From the NCBI GenBank assembly GCA_036265355.1, contig DATAPF010000683.1, forward strand, positions 35,457-99,456: a stretch of 64,000 bases of DNA, given 5' to 3'. Position 1 is the first letter of the stretch. Each line of letters begins with the position of its first letter. The notes beneath the pieces are model-generated. The model was not told the DNA's origin. It worked only from the letters and a program-made list of their open reading frames with translations, and ran no database searches. This stretch comes from Kofleriaceae bacterium. Lineage in GTDB: Bacteria; Myxococcota_A; Polyangia; Haliangiales; Haliangiaceae. This document shows, one piece after another, positions 50,271 to 61,063 of this stretch. The translations under genes and the position numbers were made by a program.

Positions 50271-51854
50271 TCACGGGATCGACTTGATCGGCAGCGCGAC
50301 GCGGAACGTGGTGCCGGCGATCGATGACGACGTGACATCGATCGTGCCGCCGTGCGCATGCACGATCTCGCGCACGATGTAGAGGCCCAGGCCGAGGCCG
50401 CCGGGATGCGCGCTGCCTCGCCCGCGCTGGAACGGGTCGAATAGCGTCTCGATCACGTCGGGCGGGATCGGCGCGCCGCGGAGCGGGTTCGAGATCGCGA
50501 TCGTTGCGACACCGTCGGCGAACGCGAGCTCGACTGTCACCGGGCCACCGGCCTTGCCGTACTGCGCGGCATTGCCGGCGAGGTTCGCGATCACCTGACC
50601 GAGGCGGTCGCCGTCCCACGCGCCCTCGACATCGTCGCCGCGCAGCTCGAACGCGGTGGTCCGGTAAGCGAGCCGTAGCTCGTCGAGCACACCGGCGGTC
50701 AGCGGCCGCAGCCGCACGGCATGGCGCTCGACCGGGATCCCGGTGCCGAGCCGCGCCCGGGTGACGTCGAGCAGCTGATCGATGATCGTCGTCATCCGGC
50801 GCGCGCTGTTCTCGAGCCGCCCGAGCACGCGCTCGTTCGCCGGATCGGTGGTCCGGGCGCGCAGCAGCTCGATCCCGGTGCTCATCGCGGCCAGCGGGTT
50901 GCGAAGGTCGTGACCGACGATGCCAAGCATCTCCTCGTGGAACCGCGTCGTGGCGCGCTCGGCCTCGAACCGGATCGCGGCTTCGAGCGCCAGGCCGGTG
51001 TGCTCGAGGCAGGTCTGGATCGCCACGAGGTCGTCGGCATCGAACGGCTCGGATGGATGATCGCGGGTCGCCGTGATCGCGCCGTGCGCGAGCCCGCGCA
51101 CCGGGATCGCCATCACCGCGAGGCCGCGGAGCCCGCACGCGCGAATGTAGTCGCCGTGGCTGGCCGGAAGCTCGGCGAGCGCCTGCGCGGGAGTGGCGAA
51201 CGCATGGACCGCCGGATCGGTGATGCCGGCGAGCGAGCGCAGCAGCTCCGCGCCGCGCTCGGTGCGGTGCTGTGTGATCGAGCTGCCGGCGCCGGCGCCG
51301 GCGAGCAGGGTCGCGGCGCAGCCATCGCACAGGTTGTCGACCAGCACGCTCGCCAGCGCGCGCAGGATCGCGTCGACGTCGCTGCCGGCCTGGAGCAGCG
51401 CGCGCCCGAGCTTGTTGATCGCGGACATCCGCAGCCGCTCGCGCTCGGCCGCCTGCTTGACCTGATACTCGCGCAGGATCGCCCCGACGCGCGCGCGCAG
51501 CTCCTCGGGCGCGAACGGCTTGGCGACGTAGTCGTTGGCGCCGCTGTCGAGCGCACACACGATGTCCTGGGTCTCGATGCGCGACGCGGTGAGGATGATG
51601 ATCGGGAGCTCCCGGGTGGCCGGGTGGGCGCGGAGGAACCGGCACACCTCGTCTCCCGACAGGCCCGGCATCACCCAGTCGACGATCAGGAGATCCGGCA
51701 GCCTGGGCGTCTCGCACAGCCGCTGGATGACGGTCGCGCCATCGCCGAAGCGCTCGAACTCATACCCGGTGCCGAGCGCGTGCTCGGTGAGCGCCACCTG
51801 GGTCCGACTGTCGTCGGCCAGCCAGATCAGAGGAAGTCTTGACGTTTCAGGCAC
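50271..51854 (-). CDS. Response-regulator receiver - GAF-like - HisKA - HATPase_c sensor kinase (last gene of the che operon)
   Basis: Receiver is LIWLADDS...DLLIVDWVMPGLSGDEV...ANDYVAKPF. H-box is IVGHDLRNPLAAM. The ATPase region is GGLGLGLYIVREIVHAHGG. Start GTG 51854 (8-nt overlap with cheB) is preferred over listed ATG 51914; it remains uncertain. Confidence 0.85.
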   Translation of the reverse strand: MPETSRLPLIWLADDSRTQVALTEHALGTGYEFERFGDGATVIQRLCETPRLPDLLIVDWVMPGLSGDEVCRFLRAHPATRELPIIILTASRIETQDIVCALDSGANDYVAKPFAPEELRARVGAILREYQVKQAAERERLRMSAINKLGRALLQAGSDVDAILRALASVLVDNLCDGCAATLLAGAGAGSSITQHRTERGAELLRSLAGITDPAVHAFATPAQALAELPASHGDYIRACGLRGLAVMAIPVRGLAHGAITATRDHPSEPFDADDLVAIQTCLEHTGLALEAAIRFEAERATTRFHEEMLGIVGHDLRNPLAAMSTGIELLRARTTDPANERVLGRLENSARRMTTIIDQLLDVTRARLGTGIPVERHAVRLRPLTAGVLDELRLAYRTTAFELRGDDVEGAWDGDRLGQVIANLAGNAAQYGKAGGPVTVELAFADGVATIAISNPLRGAPIPPDVIETLFDPFQRGRGSAHPGGLGLGLYIVREIVHAHGGTIDVTSSSIAGTTFRVALPIKSIP

Positions 51855-52860
51855 GATTGGCGATCTCCCGCGCCATCTGGTCGAGCGGCACCGCCTCGGC
51901 GCCGAGGCCGGCATCGAACACGCTGCGCGGCATACCGTACACCACGCAGGTCGATGCCGCCTCGGTGAGCAGGCTGCCGCCGGCGGCGGCGATGCTGCGC
52001 GCCCCCTCGAGCCCGTCGTCGCCCATCCCGGTCAGCACCACGCCGAGCGCGCCGGATCCGACCGCCGCGGCGCCGGTGCGAAACAGCTCGTTGACCGACG
52101 GGATGAACGACTGCATCGGCAGCGCCGCGAGCCGGGCCCGCAGCGCGGTGCCGTCGCGCTCGACATGCAGGTGCATGCCGGCGCGCGCGATCGCGACGAG
52201 CCCGGGGACGAGCTCGAGGCCGTCGTGGGCCTCGACGACACGCAGCGCCGTCAACTTGTCGAGCCGCGCGGCGAGCCCCAGGGTATAGCCGTACGGGATG
52301 TGCAGCACCACGGCGACCGGCGCGCGGAGCTGCGCCGGCAGGCCCGCGATCAGCAGGGTCAGCGCCTGCGGGCCGCCGGTCGAGGTCCCGACCATGATCA
52401 GCTGTGCGGCCGGGCCGCGCGCCAGGCGCGGGCGCTCCACCGGCGCTGCCGGCGCGACCAGCGCGCGCGACACCGCGATCACCTTTGCGACCAGCTCGTC
52501 GCCGAGCTCGGTCAGGCGCTCGCTGGCGAGGGCGGTCGGCTTGGTGATCACGTCCACCGCCCCGAGCGCGAGCGCCTCGCCCCCGAGCTCGGTATCGATG
52601 CTCGAGATGCTGACCACGAGGGCGCGCGGCCGCTTGCGGCCCGCCAGGGCGCGCAGCACGGCGAGGCCATCGACGTCGGGCATCGTCAGATCGAGCGTGA
52701 TCACGTCGGGATCGAGCGCGGCGATCTGGTCGAGCGCGTCGCGGCCATCGCGCGCCGTGGCGACGACGTCGATCTCGCCGCTCGCCCGCAGCACGCGCGA
52801 CAGCACGGTGCGCGCGAACGCGGAGTCGTCGATCACGAGCACGCGCGGCCGGCGGGTCAC
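51847..52860 (-). CDS. cheB: Chemotaxis response regulator protein-glutamate methylesterase CheB
   Basis: GTG 52860 gives VTRRPRVLVIDDSAFARTVL (receiver). The esterase motifs are MVGTSTGGPQAL and GMGDDG. GTGA overlap with the cheR stop. The upstream part of listed ORF 51847..53679 is rejected. Confidence 0.9.
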   Translation of the reverse strand: MTRRPRVLVIDDSAFARTVLSRVLRASGEIDVVATARDGRDALDQIAALDPDVITLDLTMPDVDGLAVLRALAGRKRPRALVVSISSIDTELGGEALALGAVDVITKPTALASERLTELGDELVAKVIAVSRALVAPAAPVERPRLARGPAAQLIMVGTSTGGPQALTLLIAGLPAQLRAPVAVVLHIPYGYTLGLAARLDKLTALRVVEAHDGLELVPGLVAIARAGMHLHVERDGTALRARLAALPMQSFIPSVNELFRTGAAAVGSGALGVVLTGMGDDGLEGARSIAAAGGSLLTEAASTCVVYGMPRSVFDAGLGAEAVPLDQMAREIANRA

Positions 52861-53669
52861 GGGGCGCTCCGGTAGAAGAACGACCGGCCGCGCTCCTCGC
52901 AGACCAGCCGGGTGCCGAACCGCAGCAGCGACTCGGAGGCGCCGACCGCGATCAGGCCGCCGGGCGCGAGGTGCTCGGTGAGCCGGTCGATGACCCGGAG
53001 AATCTGGTCCTCGTGGAAGTAGATCAACACGTTGCGGCACAGGATGACGTCGAACCGGCCCAGCCCCGGCGCCGCGGGACCGACCAGGTTCAGGGCCGAG
53101 AACTGGACGGCGCCACGGATCCGCGGCGCGACGGCCACGCCGTGTGCACCGGCCTCGGTGTAGCGCGCCGCCAGCTCCACGGGATGGCCGTCGCGGAGCG
53201 CGCGGCGGCCGAGCTTGCCCTGGCGCGCGCGCTCGATCACCGCCGGGCTGATGTCGGTCGCGACGATGTCGACGGCGTCGAGCACGCCGCGGGCATCGAG
53301 CAGCATCGCCAGGGTATAGGGCTCCTCGCCGGTCGAGCACGCGGCGGACCACGCCCGGGCCCGCCGGCCGGCGCGGACGATCGGCACGAGCTGGCCGTCG
53401 ACCAGCTCGGTCAGCGCATCGACCTCGCGGAACAGGTAGGTCTCGTGAACGAGCAACGCCTCGACCAAGCTGGCGAGCTCGGCGCCGGTCGCGTCGTCGT
53501 AGCGCAGCCGGTAGTAGTAGTCGAGCAGCGCATCGTGGCCGCGCTCGCTGGCGTGCGCGATCAGCTTGGACGCGAACAGCTCGCGGTCGGCCGCCGCGTA
53601 GTGCAATCCAGCGGTCTGCTCGACGAGGCCCGCGAACACGGCAAACAGCTGGGGCGACAGGCCGGTCAC
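52857..53669 (-). CDS. cheR: Chemotaxis protein methyltransferase CheR
   Basis: 270 aa. Motifs HETYLFRE, AWSAACSTGEEPYTLAM and VILCRNVLIYF are present. GTGA overlap with the upstream HEAT-protein stop. Confidence 0.9.
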   Translation of the reverse strand: MTGLSPQLFAVFAGLVEQTAGLHYAAADRELFASKLIAHASERGHDALLDYYYRLRYDDATGAELASLVEALLVHETYLFREVDALTELVDGQLVPIVRAGRRARAWSAACSTGEEPYTLAMLLDARGVLDAVDIVATDISPAVIERARQGKLGRRALRDGHPVELAARYTEAGAHGVAVAPRIRGAVQFSALNLVGPAAPGLGRFDVILCRNVLIYFHEDQILRVIDRLTEHLAPGGLIAVGASESLLRFGTRLVCEERGRSFFYRSAP

Positions 53670-56008
53670 GGTGGATCACTGCTCATCGCCGCGCAGACCC
53701 GGCGGACCTCGGGATCCAGATCGCCGAGCGCAAGCGCGGTGACCGCCGGGCGTGCCCCGTCGGCGCCGATCCCGATCAGCGCCGCCGCGGCAGCGCGGCG
53801 GACGGCAGGGCTGGAGGACCGGAGCGCCTCGAACAGCGCGCCGGTGGCGAGCTCGTCGCCCATCCGCGCGAGGGCGGCGGTCAACAGGCCGGCGGCGCGC
53901 TCGTCGGCGGTCGCGAGCCGGACCGCGATCGCGTGGACCCGGGCCGCGCCGGGCCGCGACAGCGTCAGGTGCACCGGGTGCTCGAGGTCGATCGCCAGCG
54001 CGAGCTCGACGAGCGCCGCGCTGGCCGGCGGATCGATGCGGTCGCCGAGCAGTGACAGCGCCGCCTCGCGCTCGCCGGGGTCCTCGCCCGACGCCGCGGC
54101 GATCAGCGCCGCGATCGCCTCGGGCTCGGCGCGGCGCCCCAGGCCGGCCAGCGCGATCAGCCGGGTGGCGCCGTCCGGCGAGCCGACGGCCTCGCGCAGG
54201 AAGCCGAGCACCTCGTCGTTCGCGCGCTGCGCCATGCTGGTGAGTGCCGCGCGCCGCTCGTCCAGATCCGACGAGCGGATCGCGGTACACAGCGCCTGCC
54301 ACGCCGCGGGCGTCGCGATCCGCGCGAGCGCCTCGATCGCCGCGACCCGCACGTGTGGCGTCGCGTCGGCCAGCCGGCCAATGACCAGCGCGGTCGTCGC
54401 GCCGTCGCCGATCCGCCCCAGGCCCTGGCATGCGTAGTACCGGACCCACGCGGCATCGTCGGCGAGCCCGCGTTCGAGCACCCGCCGCGCGGCGTCGCCA
54501 CCGCGGTGCCCCACCGCGCGCATGGTCGCGGCCCGGATCGCTTCGCGGGCATCGCCTGCGAGGCGGTCGAGCGCCGGTTCGACCCGGGGATCGATCATCA
54601 TGCCGATCGCGCCGACCGCGAGCTCGGCGATCCGCGGGTCGCGATCATCGGTCGCCTCGAGCACCGGGGCGAACGCCTCGGCGAACCCCATGTACGCGAT
54701 GATCCGCAGCGCGTGGCGGCGCACCGCCGGCGACCCCGAGCGCAGCGCCGCGATCGTCCGCGCCGCGGTGTCCGCCACGCCGAGCGACTGGATCGCGGCG
54801 GTTGCGGCGTGGCCGACCCGCGGGCTGGGGTCGGCGAGCGCGGCGAACAGCTGCGGCACCGCCGACGTATCGCCGATGCGCGCCAGCGCCTCGCAGGCTT
54901 GCGCCCGCACCTCCGGATCGTCGTCGCCGAGCAGCGCGCGCACGCCATCGGCGGCACGCAGGGTGTGGACCACCGGGAGCACGGCGGCGCGAGTCGCCGG
55001 ATCCGCGCTGGTCAGCGCCTCGACCAGCGCGTCATCCCGGTGCCGCGTGATCCGCTGGATCGCGTCGGTCACCGCAAGCCGCGCATCCGGGTCGTCGAGC
55101 AGGCGCGACAGGTCTGGCAGCACGCCGGCATCGCCGATCCGGCCCAGCACCACCGCGATCGCATTGCGCTCGGCGGGGTCGGCCGCGCGCAGCGCCGCGA
55201 CGAACCGCGCGGCGAATGGCCCGATCACGGCGCGCAGCACCTCGCCGGCGTGGTCGGCCGCGCCGTGCCACTCGGCGCGCACGACCAGATCGGCCAGGGC
55301 GAGCGCCACCAGCCGCACGATCGCGTCGCCGGCGCGGCGCAGCAGCGCCGACAGCGGGCGGATCGCCTGGGCGTAGCCGGAGCGACCGAGCGCGCGCGCG
55401 GCCTCGATGCGATAGGTGTCATCGTCGAGCAGTCGCGCGAGCGGCGCCACGACGCGCGGATCACCGGCGCGCGCCAGCACCTGGAGCGCCGGGAACGTGC
55501 GGAAGAAGTTGCGCCGGTCGAGCACGTCGATCAGCGCGTCGATCACGCTGGCACCGCCGATCGCGCCGAGCGCCTCGATCGCGGCGACCGCGACGTTATC
55601 GTCGGGATGCTCGAGCAGCCCGGCGAGCGCGGGCGCGGCCTCGACCGCGCTGCGGCGGCCCAGGATCTGCGCCGCGTCGGCGGCAACCGCCGGGCGCGGA
55701 TCACCGAGCAGCCCCGCGACCTGGGCGCTCGCCGACGCGCCGACCGACGCCGACAGCGCATCGACCGCGGCAGCGATCACACGCTCCGAGGAGCGCTGGT
55801 GGCGCAGCCAGCCGCACAGCGGACCGACCGCGTCATCGCCGAGCGCCGCCAGCCCGGCGACCACGGCGCGGCGGACCGTCCAGCTCGCGTCGGCCAGGCT
55901 GGCGATCAGCTCGCCGACGCTGGCCGCGCCGACCAGCACGAGCCGGTCGATCCGCTCGATCCGGCGGTGCTCGGCGTCGGTCAGGCTCAGGGCGCGCGGT
56001 GAGGTCAT
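53666..56008 (-). CDS. HEAT-repeat (PBS-lyase-like) protein embedded in the che operon
   Basis: 780 aa composed almost entirely of about 31-aa units of the type D(P/A)..VR..A..ALG.IGD..A...L...L.D. ATGA overlap with the mcp stop. Confidence 0.9.
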
Positions 56009-58584
56009 GGCGATCGACCCGGTGGGCTCGGCGGCGCCGCCGATGGAGTCGCCGCCGGGGCGGCCGGCGCCGGCCCCCCGGGAGTCGCCGACAGCGCCGC
56101 GATCCGGTCGGCGTGGTCCGCGGCGGCCGCGCGCAGCGCAGCGCTCTCGCGCAGCACGAGGTCGACATCGCCGGCGCTGGCCGTGGCCGACCGCGCCTGG
56201 GCGCCGAGTGCGGTGGTCAGCTCGCGGCTGCGGCCGCGCAGCTCGCGCATCGCCCGGGCGACCTCGCCGGAGGCCGTCGCCTGCTCCGTGGTCGCCCGTG
56301 CGACCTCCTGCAGCGTGGCGGTCTGGCGCGTGGCGCTCGCCGCCAGGCTGCCGACGACCTCGGCCTGCTCGGCGACCGCACGTGCGGTCTGCTTGGCGAT
56401 CCGCCGGACCTCCCCGGCATCCTTGACCAGCAGCGTCACGGCCTGGGCGTGCTCGGCGGTCGCCGCGGTGATCTCGGTGGACAGCCGGGCGATATCGCGG
56501 ACGCCAGCGTCGATCTCCTTGGCGGCCATGGCCTGCTCGCCGAGCCCGCGCGCGTTCTGCACCGCGGTCTTGCGCGCACCCTCCATCGCGCGCGCGATCT
56601 CGTTGGCGCCCTTGGCCTGCTCGGCGATCGCGACGACGATGCGCTGGGTCGCGGTGGCGACGTCCTGGACGCTGGTCGCGATCCCGGTCACGCTGCGCAG
56701 CTGCTCGGTCATCGCCGCCGTGGTCCGCGCCGTCGCCGTGCGCATCTGGGTCGCGGTGCGCGCCAGCTGGCCGGCTCCGGTCGCCTGCTCCTCCGACGCG
56801 CGGGTCAGCCGCTCGGCGCTCGCGGTCAGCTGCGTGGTGCCCTTGACCAGCTCGCGCAGCGCGCGGGCCTGCTCGCCGGTGGCGTCGCGGGTCTGCTTGG
56901 CCATCGTGCGCATCTCGCCGGCCGACCGGGCCAGGCTCTGGGTCGACTGGGTCTGCTCGGCGCTCGCGCGCGCGATCGTCCGGCTCTCGGTGTCGAGCCG
57001 CGCCGTCGTCGCCGCCACGCTCTGGACGACCCGGGCCTGATCCTCGCTGGCCGTCGCGATGTTCTTGATCGAGCCATCGAGCACATCGACACCCTGCAGG
57101 ATCGCCTCGAGCCCGCCGCGCGCCTCCTCGCCGAGCTGCGCGCCTTCGTCGGCGATCCGCAGGCCCTCGGTGCTCGACGCCACCGCCTCGCGCACCGCGG
57201 TCTGCAGCGCGCGGATGATCTTGGCGACCTCGCCGGCCGATACCGCGGCGCGATCGGCGAGCGCGCGGACCTCCTCGGCGATCACCGCGAACCCGCGGCC
57301 GTGCTCGCCGGCGCGCGCGGCCTCGATGCTCGCGTTGAGCGACAGGAGATTCGTGCGGTCGGCGATCAGGTTGATCGTCTGCACGATGTCGCCGATCTCC
57401 TCCGCGCGCTTGCCCATCTCCTTCATGACCCCGGCGCCGTCGACCATGACCAGGCGGATCTTGGCCAGGCCGGCGATCGTGCGGCCGACCGTGGCGCCGC
57501 CGGCGCGCGCCGAGCCGGCGACCCGCTGCGAGGTCGCGCGGGTGTCCTCGACGACGGCCACGATCTTGCGGGTGACGGCCTCGAGCTGGGTCCCCGCGGC
57601 CGCGTTCGACGATGCCAGCGCGCTGACCTCCTGCGCCGACTGGGCGACGGCCGCCGCCGAGCGCGCGATCTGTTCGACCGCGGCGGCGTTGCCGTCGACC
57701 ACGACCGCGACCTTCTCCGCGGTCGCGGCGACCTCCTCGACCGACGCCGCGATCTCGGCGATGCCGCTCGCGGAGCTGGTCGCCGAGTCCTCGAGCGCGC
57801 CCGCCAGCTCCGACACGCCGCGGATCGAACGGGCGAGCTCCTCGGCGGTGGCCGAGGTCTCCTCGACCGAGCTCGCGGTGTCGGTGGAGTCGGTCACCAC
57901 CTGCTCGAGCGCGGTGGTCAGCGCCTTGAACCCGGCCGCGACGCTGGTCGTGCGATCGCCGACCTGGCGCGCGTCGCTCGCCAGCCGGGTGGACCCCGAG
58001 GACATCTCCTCGATGGTGCTCGCGACCTCCTCGATGGTGCTCGAGGTGTCCTGACCGCGCGCCGCGGCGGCGGTCACTCCGGCGGCGGCCTGGCTCGCCG
58101 AGGCGGCGAGTCGCTGCGCGGTCTCGGCGAGCTCGGTCGTGCTGGTCGCGGTGGTCTTCAGCGTGCGGGCGGTCTGCTCGAGCGCCGTCGCGGTCGACTC
58201 GCTGCTCGCCGCGAGCTGCTCGGTGTCCTTGCGTACCCCGGCGACCGACGCGGCGACCTGCTGGAGCCCGGTCGCGGTGGCCTCGAGCGACTGCAGGGCA
58301 TCGCGGGCGTTCCCCGCGACCCCGGCCTGCGAGCGGGTGAGCTCCTCGCCGGCGCTCGCCGTCTGATCGATGCTCGCGGAGAACTCCTCGAGCGCGGCGC
58401 GCGCCTGCTCGGCGGCGGCTTGCTGCTGGGTCCCGGCGTCGGCGAGCCGGCCGGCGGCCGCCGCGATGTGATCGGCCGCCCCGGCGGAGTGCCGCAGCGA
58501 GCGAACCACGTCATCGACGCTCGACGGGTGGCTCGACGCGTGATCGAGCGTTGCCCGCTCGCGACCGTTGTCCTGGCTGTTCAT
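56005..58584 (-). CDS. Soluble methyl-accepting chemotaxis protein with an exceptionally long helical region
   Basis: The signalling tip [44 protein letters not shown] lies at residues about 400-445 of 859. No hydrophobic TM segment or ligand-binding domain is visible. Nine 28-residue repeats lie C-terminal to the signalling domain. Confidence 0.9.
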
Positions 58585-59012
58585 GACGCGTGCTCCTGTC
58601 CGATCACACGGGGTACATCGACGATGAGAAACAATCGATTCCGCACGCTGACCACGCCGGTGACGAAGCCGCTGGCCTGCTGCTTGATCAGCTCGGGCGC
58701 GTCCTGGAAGCTGGCCTCGTCGAGCTGGATCACGTCGCGCGCGCTGTCGACCAGCAGCCCCACGACGCGCGTGCCGAGCTGGACCACGACCACGCGGTGG
58801 TCGAGCGTATGGTCGGTCGGCGGCAGGCCGAACCGCTTGCGGAGGTCGATCACGGGCACGACCCGGCCGCGGACCTGGACCAGCCCGGCCACGTAGGGCG
58901 GCGCGCCCGGAACGTGGGTCGCCGCCTGGAACGACTCGAGGTGCAGGACCTGCGCCGCCGGGACCACGTACTCCGCGGTGCCGACGCGAAACGCCACATG
59001 GAGCGAGGTCAT
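58581..59012 (-). CDS. cheW: Chemotaxis coupling protein CheW
   Basis: 143 aa. [15 protein letters not shown]...[21 protein letters not shown]...[20 protein letters not shown] is typical CheW. There are ATGA overlaps on both sides. Confidence 0.9.
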
Positions 59013-61063
59013 GAAGCCGGCCTTTCCGCGCCGCGCGTGCTCAGCGCATGGAGATCGAGGACCAGCGTGGGCAGCCCATCGCCCAGATCGGTCGCGCCGG
59101 CGACGCCGGGGACCTTCAGCAGCGCATCGTCGACCGGGCGGACCACGACCTCGTGGCGCCCGAGCATGCGGTCGACCATGAAGCCGACCGGCACGCCCTG
59201 GCGGCGGATCACGATCGCCTTGCGCGCCGCGGCGCCGTCATCGATCGCGAGCAGCGTGCCGAGCGGGCGCAGCGGGATCGGCTGACCGCGCCGCTCTGCG
59301 AGGTAGACCGGCGCGGGCGCGCCCGGCGCGGCCGGCGGCAGCACGTCCTGGCCAGGGCGCAGCTCGAAGATCTCGTCGATCGCCGCCACCGGCACGACGA
59401 AGGTCTGGCGGCCGCAGGCAAACGAGAACACATCGACCACCGCGATCGTCAACGGGACGCGCAGCGTGAACGCGGTCCCCGCGCCGGGCGTGGTCGCGAT
59501 CGCGAGCTCGCCGCCGAGATCCTGGGTCGCGATCCGGCGCACGATGTCCATCCCGAGCCCGCGCCCGCTGGTCCGGGTCGCGACGTCGCGGGTCGAGAAC
59601 CCGGGCGCGGTGAGCACGTCGAGCAGGTCGGCGTCGTCGTCGACCGCGCGGCCGGCGCGCGCCGCGATCGCCCGGCGATCGATGCCGCGACCGTCGTCCT
59701 TGACCACCAGCTCGAGCCGGCTGCCGCCGACGTCGAAGCAGCTCACCGCCACGGTGCCTGCGCGCGGCTTGCCGCGGGCGACCCGCTCGTCGGCTGGCTC
59801 GATCGCGTGATCGACCGCGTTGCGGATCAGGTGAACCAGCGCCGGCAGCAGGCGATCGGCCACCGCCTTGTCGAGCTCGGCGTCGCGCGCGTCGATCTCG
59901 AGCCGGAGCTCCTTGTGCGCGCTGCGCCCGAGGCTGCGCACGAGCAGCGCCAGCGGCTCGAGCACCTCGGCGACCCGCACCATCCGGGCGCGCAGGATCG
60001 CGCGCCGCAGATCGCGCAGCTGGCGAGCCTGGTGGTTCGCGACCTCGCGCAGCGCGCGGACGTCGACCCGGCGCTCGGCGAGCGCTGCGATCTCGCGCTC
60101 GAGCCGGAACCGCGACACGATCAGCAGCGACAGCTGGTCCTGCAGCTCGTCGAGCCGGGCGAGCTCGACCCGCACGAGCGCGCGGCCGAGCAACGCGGCT
60201 CCGTCTTCCCGGCCCACGGTGCCGGCCGCCGCGCTCGGGGCAGGCAGCGCGTCGGTCGGCTCGTCGAGGATGGCGGCTGGCGCGGCCGGCTCGGAGGGCG
60301 GGCTCAGCTCGACCAGACGATCCGTGCTGCTGGCCGCCGCCTGTGCGATCGCGTCGGCCGGCGCAGCGCTCGCGACCAGCAGATCGAACGCGAGGCCCGG
60401 CGCCTGGCCCGGCGTCGCCCGCGGCACCACCTTGACCACGTCGCCGAGCTCGCCCAGCCGTGCGCGCACCGATGCGATCGTGACGCCGCGGCTCGCATTG
60501 GCCTCGCTCGGGACGAACGACACCCGCCACGCCCGCCGCCCGATCTGCCAGCCCGTCGCCACCATCTGCCGCTCGCCCGCGGTCAGCCCGGTGTCCCAGG
60601 CTGGCGCGGTCGGCGAATCGGCGCTCGCCGCGGGCACCGGGGCTCGTGCGGTCGACGCCGCTGCGCCGCCGGCGGCCGCGATCGCATCGAGCAGCTCGGT
60701 CGATACCGGCACCGGCGCCCGCTGCTCGTCGATCGCGCGCACGTGCTCGGCGATCGTCGCGACGCCGCGCAGCGAGACATCGACCGACTCGCGCGCCAGC
60801 GCGCCGCCGGCGCGATCCGCAGTGCGCACCAGGCCCTCGAGTCCGTGCGCCAGCTCGACGATCGGTTCCACACCGATCATCCCTGCGAGTCCCTTGAGCG
60901 TGTGGAGCGCGCGGAACAGATCGCGGACCGCGCGCGGCCGCAGCGTCCCTGCGAGGTTCGCGCCCTCGATCTCGAGCAACGCGGCGTTGGCTGCCGCGAC
61001 GAGCTCGTCCGACTCGGCGATGAACCCCGCCACGAACTCGCGTAGATCGACGCCGTCGCTCAC
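59009..61063 (-). CDS. cheA: Chemotaxis histidine kinase CheA
   Basis: Hpt motif is [15 protein letters not shown]. The HATPase region is [12 protein letters not shown]...DDGRGID...[12 protein letters not shown]-terminal CheW-like domain is present. GTG start overlaps the cheY stop (GTGA). Confidence 0.9.

Follow-up and report, generated by a model that had tools for sequence, protein, structure and literature searches.

A 64,000-nucleotide stretch of the genome of a Kofleriaceae bacterium (contig DATAPF010000683.1, positions 35,457 to 99,456; hereafter the window, numbered from its first letter) carries a minus-strand open reading frame at 56005..58584 that encodes an 859-residue soluble methyl-accepting chemotaxis protein (MCP) within a chemosensory operon. 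Here, we propose, at a probability of roughly 0.7, that this protein is a sensor-less chemoreceptor of the Che7/Mcp7 type, and that its entire chain forms one antiparallel coiled-coil hairpin of ~116 heptads (116H) with a modular C arm and layers of glutamine in its core. The predicted single unbroken helical hairpin is nearly twice as long as the longest catalogued receptor class. MiST3 lists twelve heptad classes, of which 64H is the longest (PMC6943060), and at ~116H the protein falls outside the catalogued range of 24H to 64H (Alexander & Zhulin; MiST3), although its tip-proximal core could still score as one heptad class, as in PMC3945109 for the MCPs of Myxococcus xanthus.

Heptad register and structure prediction outline a probable single hairpin

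MCPsignal (PF00015) was the sole Pfam family above its cut-off in the protein (154 bits against a cut-off of 34.6, with the best stretch at residues 385-531), and no transmembrane segment was found by hydropathy (Kyte-Doolittle, 19-residue maximum of 1.29). Both results agree with an earlier reading of this DNA from its letters only (hereafter the sequence-only reading), which had seen neither a transmembrane helix nor a sensor domain. No NCBIfam model reached its cut-off for either the MCP or the HEAT-repeat protein encoded next to it. The tip motif AGEHGRGF occurs only once and sets the hairpin turn at E427, inside a conserved tip that is predicted to bind CheA and CheW and that we place at residues 403-445, close to the interval of about 400-445 given earlier. 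When the MCP model was searched with Foldseek, the best matches were MCP structures (2CH7, 3ZX6, 1QU7 and McpB models), followed by the arms of SMC and MukB. The canonical tip and the co-encoded CheA and CheW argue for a true MCP, as opposed to the MAC1/MAC2 family mentioned in PMC6943060.

We found that the large hydrophobic residues (I, L, M, V and F) are confined to residue numbers with remainders 2 and 5 modulo 7 in every block of residues 30-835, with no shift, indicating a single heptad register (a = 2, d = 5) in both arms without a stutter; the register check suggested by the sequence-only reading thus came out in favor of continuity. All EE and EQ pairs from residue 59 to residue 486 share one register, and the spacings of 56 and 42 residues reported before for the EE pairs of the N arm are correct (185 to 241 to 283). 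No proline occurs between residues 21 and 834, and all but one of the 11 prolines fall within residues 835-859. AlphaFold2 predicted helix over residues 23-832 in both of two models, which were built from different alignments, apart from the paired breaks considered below; the predicted local distance difference test (pLDDT) values were 71 and 67, the second alignment bringing no improvement. These helix limits and the register give two arms of 405 residues, or ~58 heptads each, rather than the ~50 per arm estimated from the letters; the accompanying claim that the total exceeds the 64-heptad maximum holds. At 0.15 nm per residue, the straight hairpin would measure about 60 nm; scaling from the lengths of 210 Å for 36H and 260 Å for 44H (PMC2577667) gives about 68 nm instead.

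The lengths of the two arms are closely matched among homologues. The tip was central in 15 of 15 full-length soluble homologues of 660-899 residues, with N/C arm lengths of, for example, 423/425, 425/415, 419/412, 409/400, 418/418, 457/442, 350/338, 356/342 and 328/332, and the two lengths were strongly correlated (r = 0.97, 16 homologues). The short relatives (660-713 residues) lack counterparts of residues 1-~85 and ~765-859 of the 859-residue MCP, so that both termini are trimmed equally. Among homologues from five phyla, no insertion or deletion of at least 5 residues was found between residues 118 and 763, and one member of the short class (L013) has a single 5-residue gap at residues 113-117. 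The equal arms and the equal trimming of both termini support a single continuous hairpin. Register, helix limits and covariation of the arms thus all describe two antiparallel heptad arms of equal length around the tip, as in other MCPs, and support the proposals that the C-terminal repeats extend the signalling hairpin instead of forming a separate domain, and that an N-terminal heptad region, which comprises the first ~400 residues, pairs with them as the matching arm.

An alternative shape is a hairpin bent at an elbow about halfway along, as in SMC or MukB, which would give a shorter (~30 nm) and thicker bundle. In each of the two AlphaFold2 monomer models, the arms are broken at matching levels (residues 177-184 and 666-676 in the first model, residues 225-254 and 602-644 in the second; i + j of ~854), and arms of SMC, MukB and Rad50, including the MukB elbow, are among the Foldseek matches. 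However, the level of the break shifts with the alignment used, and the pair in the first model coincides with an edge of alignment coverage, most matches covering residues ~180-640 of the query. Furthermore, a monomer prediction leaves the dimer face exposed, and folding back is to be expected of a chain modelled alone in this way. The register shows no stutter at either level, and the breaks showed no sign of a hinge made by a conserved Gly or Pro. As the positions move with the alignment and one pair marks a coverage edge, we mostly rejected the breaks as a real hinge, and we consider an elbow improbable. That the breaks lie at the same height in both arms in itself speaks for one continuous hairpin.

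The C arm carries an old array of 28-residue units

EQ or EH pairs occur at residues 543, 571, 599, 627, 655, 683, 711 (EH), 739 and 767, at a spacing of exactly 28. All nine pairs within residues 505-834 fall in one phase modulo 28; 20,000 shuffles gave an average of 2.05 pairs, with at most 4 in a common phase. The exact period that had first drawn attention to this gene is therefore confirmed. BLOSUM autocorrelation of the C arm peaked at lags of 28, 56, 84 and 112 (z = 9.3-10.2), and stacking the sequence in rows of 28 exposed further degenerate units carrying DQ515-516, AQ795-796 and DH823-824, which bring the array to ~12 units over residues 507-834. The nine units described before are thus real, but they are not the whole array.

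Tandem Repeats Finder detected no 84-nt period at the DNA level; the repeat is visible in the protein sequence only, with a mean identity of 25% among units. A recent expansion or slippage of the array was therefore rejected. Each unit is most similar to the unit at the same position in the orthologues from Hyalangium and Polyangiaceae (11 of 12 units for Hyalangium, at 28-60% identity), indicating that the array is old and that each unit is individually conserved. A comparison of repeat number among orthologues, also proposed in the sequence-only reading, gave 8 units in the ~690-residue relatives against 11-12 in the Myxococcota type.

Unit 1 of the array aligns with IAAAIEEQTAAVDEI of Thermotoga maritima TM1143 and with IASASDEQSRGIDQV of Tsr, and the C-terminal 331 residues alone match positions 91-170 of the MCPsignal model. 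From these alignments, the units are best read as diverged copies of the canonical C-arm motif A-x-x-E-Q-x-x-G that is general among MCPs. The cytoplasmic domain of TM1143 (2CH7, 44H) is the best solved relative (E = 1e-22 over residues 278-566; Foldseek template modelling score of 0.62 on the target), its canonical IAAAIEEQ motif aligning with unit 1, as does SDEQSRG of Tsr. It covers residues ~265-578, beyond which the 859-residue MCP is longer by ~240 residues in the N arm and ~255 in the C arm.

A unit of the form EQxxGxxQI also recurs 4-5 times at a 28-residue spacing in ordinary long transmembrane receptors (matches P0157, P0211 and P0031); the repeat itself therefore has precedents, and the unusual feature is its copy number. 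These long-class receptors (about 58H-64H) resemble the 859-residue MCP in the tip, in the EE-rich heptads of the N arm and in the C-arm module itself, which they carry from tip+89 onward. In contrast, they have 4-5 modules, arms of ~230 residues and, in addition, transmembrane segments, HAMP and sensor or C-terminal domains, whereas the 859-residue MCP consists of ~12 modules in 405-residue arms and nothing else.

The glutamine of the EQ pair appears to form a core layer

In the stacked units, the Gln column is in phase with columns 3, 17 and 24, which hold I, L, V or M, and thus occupies heptad position d. We then compared these positions in an alignment of 15 homologues. The residues at 516, 544, 572, 600, 628, 656 and 684 are Gln in 12-15 of the 15 sequences, His in all but one of the remaining cases and never Glu, and the residue before the unit Gln is Glu, sometimes Asp and almost never Gln. 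Exchange between Glu and Gln is the usual signature of CheB/CheR sites. In this family it was seen at columns in position c, namely 186, 193, 242, 249, 305 and 347 in the N arm and 501, 508, 557, 564, 592, 606 and 662 in the C arm (for example E6/Q9 at 186, E10/Q5 at 193 and E12/Q3 at 242). The strict methylation consensus, [ASTG][ASTG]xx[EQ][EQ]xx[ASTG][ASTG], matched the 859-residue MCP five times, always in the N arm and with the acceptor (109, 186, 193, 242 or 284) at position c, and a match at tip-143 was present in 8 of the 15 homologues scanned. These candidate sites, together with the cognate cheR and cheB in the operon, are further features of an MCP. We read the EQ motif as structural: at intervals of four heptads, a polar Gln would be buried as a core layer, with a conserved Ala alongside. 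The unit Gln is probably not a methylation site, and the sites used for adaptation would then be at other positions in the two arms.

The sequence-only reading had likened the pairs to CheR/CheB sites; on that view, the Gln of nine EQ/EH pairs would be deamidated and then methylated to form a very large methylation memory. The presence of cheR and cheB in the operon fits this proposal, as does the resemblance of the units to the loose motif A-x-x-E-Q-x-x-[small]-[small]; a few homologues have a strict-consensus unit at tip+117 or tip+229 with Gln as the acceptor, and HMMER, by inserting one gap, puts E543-Q544 on Tsr 492-493 (1QU7). On the other hand, none of the C-arm EQ units of the 859-residue MCP matches the strict consensus, the Gln sits in the hydrophobic phase at position d, and it is never Glu at 516-684, while columns 186, 193, 305, 557, 564, 606 and 662 do swap. 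Moreover, an ungapped count from the aligned pair Tsr Q466/Q516 of the 859-residue MCP brings the Tsr site E493 into line with E543 instead of Q544. This places the unit Glu at the canonical acceptor position and makes it a possible site. For the EQ pairs as a whole, we did not retain the assignment to CheR/CheB sites and regard a methylation memory of this kind as unlikely.

It is hardly credible that the two ends of the protein (~180 N-terminal and ~190 C-terminal residues) fold as domains of their own outside the hairpin, such as a helical-bundle sensor and a tail: the ends have weak, sub-threshold Pfam matches (PilJ, BAR_3) and are covered by few database sequences, but the arms are equal and their ends trimmed together across phyla, one register and the 28-residue unit run to residue ~832, and AlphaFold2 shows no non-helical segment besides the paired breaks.

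The operon matches Che7 of Myxococcus xanthus

The mcp gene is the fourth of seven genes, cheY-cheA-cheW-mcp-HEAT-cheR-cheB, that are linked by 4-nt ATGA or GTGA overlaps (Table 1). The start codon of mcp shares an ATGA with the stop codon of cheW, and the ATGA overlap at the other end of mcp indicates that the HEAT-repeat gene is translationally coupled to it. Directly downstream of cheB, on the same strand, lies a gene for a hybrid histidine kinase (receiver, HisKA and HATPase_c; 50271-51914, minus strand), which may be part of the same signalling module. A 1226-residue Arg-rich open frame runs antisense to the MCP gene (55216-58896, plus strand), and several similar frames lie opposite the che genes; open frames of this kind commonly arise as artefacts in DNA of 72% GC, and none of these is a gene. 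GC content is 72% in the window and 95% at third codon positions (GC3) of the MCP gene.

Gene order and protein sizes match those of the M. xanthus che7 operon (MXAN_6965-6959), cheY7-cheA7-cheW7-mcp7-cpc7-cheR7-cheB7, in which CheY7 has 125, CheA7 683, CheW7 148, CheR7 273 and CheB7 348 residues (PMC3945109). Mcp7 (MXAN_6962) is a cytoplasmic protein of 821 residues with MCPsignal at 317-534 (PMC3945109). It resembles the 859-residue MCP in having no HAMP, transmembrane or sensor domain, a central MCPsignal region and a HEAT-repeat protein encoded next to it. The operon order around a soluble mcp is thus of the Che7 type, and the match in order and sizes indicates a member of a known, structurally undescribed family; by this analogy, we assign the protein to the Che7/Mcp7 family, which has been partly studied. 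The M. xanthus MCPs, Mcp7 therefore included, were all assigned to class 40H except DifA and McpK (44H) in PMC3945109, a paper that is silent on the length of Mcp7, on long arms and on a 28-residue repeat. No description of a ~116H architecture, of ~12 four-heptad modules or of a periodic core Gln was found in the literature searched. Neither M. xanthus Mcp7 (ABF86943) nor any named Myxococcus protein was among the matches to the Hyalangium orthologue used as query, and Mcp7 was likewise absent from the exhaustive search and the genome scan described below.

A HEAT-repeat gene of 750-940 codons directly follows the long soluble MCP in the loci checked from Myxococcota, Anaerolineae and Acidobacteriota (L005-L010 and L012) and in L001. 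The encoded proteins are Cpc7/PBS-lyase-like, with an N-terminal PAS domain in the Acidobacteriota locus L012 and in matches P0269 and P0272. In the latter two, MCP, PAS and HEAT regions are joined in one chain, and we rejected these fusions as Rosetta-stone evidence, since the Arg-rich, out-of-frame junction points to assembly frameshifts. Similar Arg-rich out-of-frame stretches occur in P0001, P0006, P0008, P0269, P0272, P0273 and P0274, from high-GC metagenome assemblies. Given that such frameshifts truncate MCPs or fuse them to the HEAT gene, the family lengths in databases are unreliable.

Relatives of full length are few and spread over several phyla

An exhaustive search of 1.84 billion representatives returned very few full-length relatives; most of the strong matches were fragments or ~64H-type receptors aligned over residues ~180-640. 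The sequence of the window itself, which derives from an uncultured organism of soil, was matched in soil metagenomes. A query with the C-terminal extension (residues 573-834) found two short fragments only, the word prefilter probably being swamped by low-complexity words. In a scan of GTDB species genomes, full-length relatives were found in nine genomes, namely Hyalangium versicolor, two metagenome-assembled genomes (MAGs) of Polyangiaceae, two Anaerolineae MAGs, three Acidobacteriota and Oleiharenicola lentus, and all of them are soluble with a central tip. The closest are those of H. versicolor (848 residues, 46% identity over residues 1-852), which is the nearest relative in culture among the matches, and the Polyangiaceae MAGs. 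The homologues fall into length classes of about 660-713, 809-859 and about 897 residues. Orthologues of similar length are common, so the length is a family trait, an outcome that the sequence-only reading had allowed for; its companion idea, that the protein would then belong to an already classified heptad class, did not hold. In the Verrucomicrobiota locus, cheR-cheB takes the place of the HEAT gene after the MCP, and the Bacteroidota relatives (about 897 residues, arms 457/440) lie in a different che cluster.

DosM-like receptors (V. cholerae DosM; matches of 640-670 residues, e.g. P0029) are likewise soluble, all-helical and long, but they owe their length to two tips, whereas the 859-residue MCP has the one tip at residue 427 and is not of the DosM type. 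Soluble MCPs of 640-670 residues with two tips (at ~200 and ~500) form a large family in the middle of the homologue list (P0021-P0120; P0029 is a 649-residue protein of Syntrophomonas curvata).

Other matches carry long arms in a different context. P0004 (894 residues) is a membrane-bound relative with a CHASE3-type N terminus, transmembrane segments and a 347-residue C arm with at least 5 EQ units, which indicates that super-long (~96H) hairpins also occur on transmembrane receptors. A globular domain follows the C arm in P0157, P0171 and P0175 (C-terminal ~250 residues each) and in P0186 and P0194 (~500 residues). It resembles a periplasmic solute-binding protein, although a cytoplasmic placement is expected, and the C terminus is an unusual position for a sensor; these are mostly transmembrane long-class MCPs, P0194 being without a transmembrane-like segment. 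The long-class transmembrane MCPs P0211 (~775-830) and P0031 (~755-816) have a Cys-rich end, CWD..C...C.AY....RCWL..GTWCKG......A...C..C.AF, possibly a metal- or redox-sensing C-terminal module.

Table 1. Features of the operon and of the 859-residue MCP (positions in the window, except in the last row, where they are those of the respective homologue loci)
Feature	Position	Strand	Basis
cheY-like single-domain response regulator, 131 aa	61060..61455	-	Pfam Response_reg; GTGA overlap with cheA
cheA, 684 aa: Hpt, HATPase_c, CheW-like	59009..61063	-	Pfam; NCBIfam CheA models match below cut-offs
cheW, 143 aa	58581..59012	-	Pfam CheW E = 1.7e-35; 4-nt overlaps with cheA and mcp
Soluble methyl-accepting chemotaxis protein, 859 aa, Mcp7-like	56005..58584	-	Open reading frame; Pfam MCPsignal; no transmembrane segment
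Predicted hairpin N arm, residues 23-427, 405 aa, ~58 heptads	57304..58518	-	AlphaFold2 helix, heptad register
Strict-consensus match, residues 104-113, Q109 at position c	58246..58275	-	Consensus scan
Two overlapping strict-consensus matches, residues 181-197, E186 and E193 at position c	57994..58044	-	Consensus scan; E/Q swapping
Strict-consensus match, residues 237-246, E242 at position c	57847..57876	-	Consensus scan; column E12/Q3
Strict-consensus match, residues 279-288, E284 at position c	57721..57750	-	Consensus scan
Signalling tip, residues 403-445, turn at E427	57250..57378	-	Invariant columns in family alignments; aligns with TM1143 and Tsr tips
Predicted hairpin C arm, residues 428-832, 405 aa, ~58 heptads	56089..57303	-	AlphaFold2 helix, same register, no proline
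~12 tandem 28-residue (4-heptad) units, residues 507-834, consensus xxIxRAxxEQAxxGxxEIARxxxxxRxxA	56083..57066	-	Stacked alignment, autocorrelation
Nine units of the sequence-only reading, residues 541-792, EQ/EH at 543...767	56209..56964	-	Position of pairs
Pro/Ala-rich C-terminal tail, probably disordered, residues 833-859	56008..56088	-	10/11 prolines at 835-859; pLDDT <50 in both AlphaFold2 models
HEAT-repeat protein, 780 aa, Cpc7-like	53666..56008	-	Pfam HEAT_2 E = 1.8e-81, 10 stretches; ATGA overlap with mcp
cheR methyltransferase, 270 aa	52857..53669	-	Pfam CheR E = 4.3e-43
cheB methylesterase, receiver and CheB_methylest	51847..52860	-	Pfam, NCBIfam; GTG start 52860 overlaps cheR stop
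HEAT-repeat genes at homologue loci	L001 5260-7614; L005 11448-13931; L008 4366-7098; L009 3957-6788; L010 10830-13070		

A proposed working model and its significance

In the model that we favor, residues 23-427 would run down to the CheA/CheW-binding tip and residues 428-832 would run back, and the hairpin would pair with a second copy into a four-helix bundle, by analogy with every solved MCP. The extra length would have arisen by an old tandem duplication of a 28-residue, 4-heptad module, copied in the C arm from the canonical A-x-x-E-Q-x-x-G-x-x-[EQ]-[ILV], with the N arm extended equally by heptad modules of its own that bear EE or EQ pairs. The invariant Gln at core position d would place a polar layer at intervals of four heptads (~4.2 nm), with the preceding Glu at surface position c. 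The tip would control the co-encoded CheA and CheW, and CheR and CheB of the operon would tune the stability of the bundle through methylation of c-position Glu, or of Gln there once it is deamidated; the most promising sites are 109, 186, 193, 242 and 284 in the N arm and the E/Q-swapping columns of both arms. In M. xanthus, CheY7 is reported to interact with its HEAT-repeat partner Cpc7, as cited in PMC11514114; by analogy, the single-domain CheY may relay the output to the product of the HEAT-repeat gene directly downstream of mcp. Because the receptor has no sensor domain, input is likely to be received by the long bundle or by a HEAT protein attached to that bundle.

Several points weigh against this model. 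The confidence of the AlphaFold2 monomers is modest (pLDDT 66-71; predicted template modelling score 0.28-0.35), and the break pair in each of them is compatible with a folded-back shape. That the Gln is buried and that the hairpins form a four-helix bundle are deductions from heptad phase and from solved MCPs, and an invariant Glu can still be methylated, as is Tsr E493, which corresponds to E543 in the ungapped register. Orthology to Mcp7 is drawn from synteny, protein sizes and the Hyalangium homologue. Finally, the long relatives in Bacteroidota and Verrucomicrobiota are without a HEAT gene, so that length is not strictly tied to HEAT.

A more far-reaching version, which we put forward as speculation and hold to be doubtful, is that a ~60-nm segmented rod with ~12 individually conserved 4-heptad modules and buried Gln layers between them, and the co-encoded HEAT solenoid of ~780 residues bound along it, make up a new cytoplasmic type of chemosensory assembly. 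In such an assembly, the rod would serve at once as input surface and as adaptation register, and the geometry of the array, in our equally tentative view, would be unlike any that has been imaged.

The geometry of chemoreceptor arrays is set by receptor length. Members of this family reach about 96H, 116H and 124H across Myxococcota, Chloroflexota, Acidobacteriota, Verrucomicrobiota and Bacteroidota, while the accepted catalogue ends at 64 heptads, so the long architecture is a family-wide trait over several phyla and not a one-off. Given that no insertion or deletion of at least 5 residues interrupts the ~645 aligned residues (118-763), the hairpin can be nearly doubled with its arms still matched. 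The conserved EQ motif of MCP C arms, as an apparent core layer, matters for the prediction of methylation sites from sequence. M. xanthus Mcp7 or the Hyalangium orthologue offers a concrete and cheap target for studying how a sensor-less receptor takes its input and how it is paired with a large HEAT-repeat protein.

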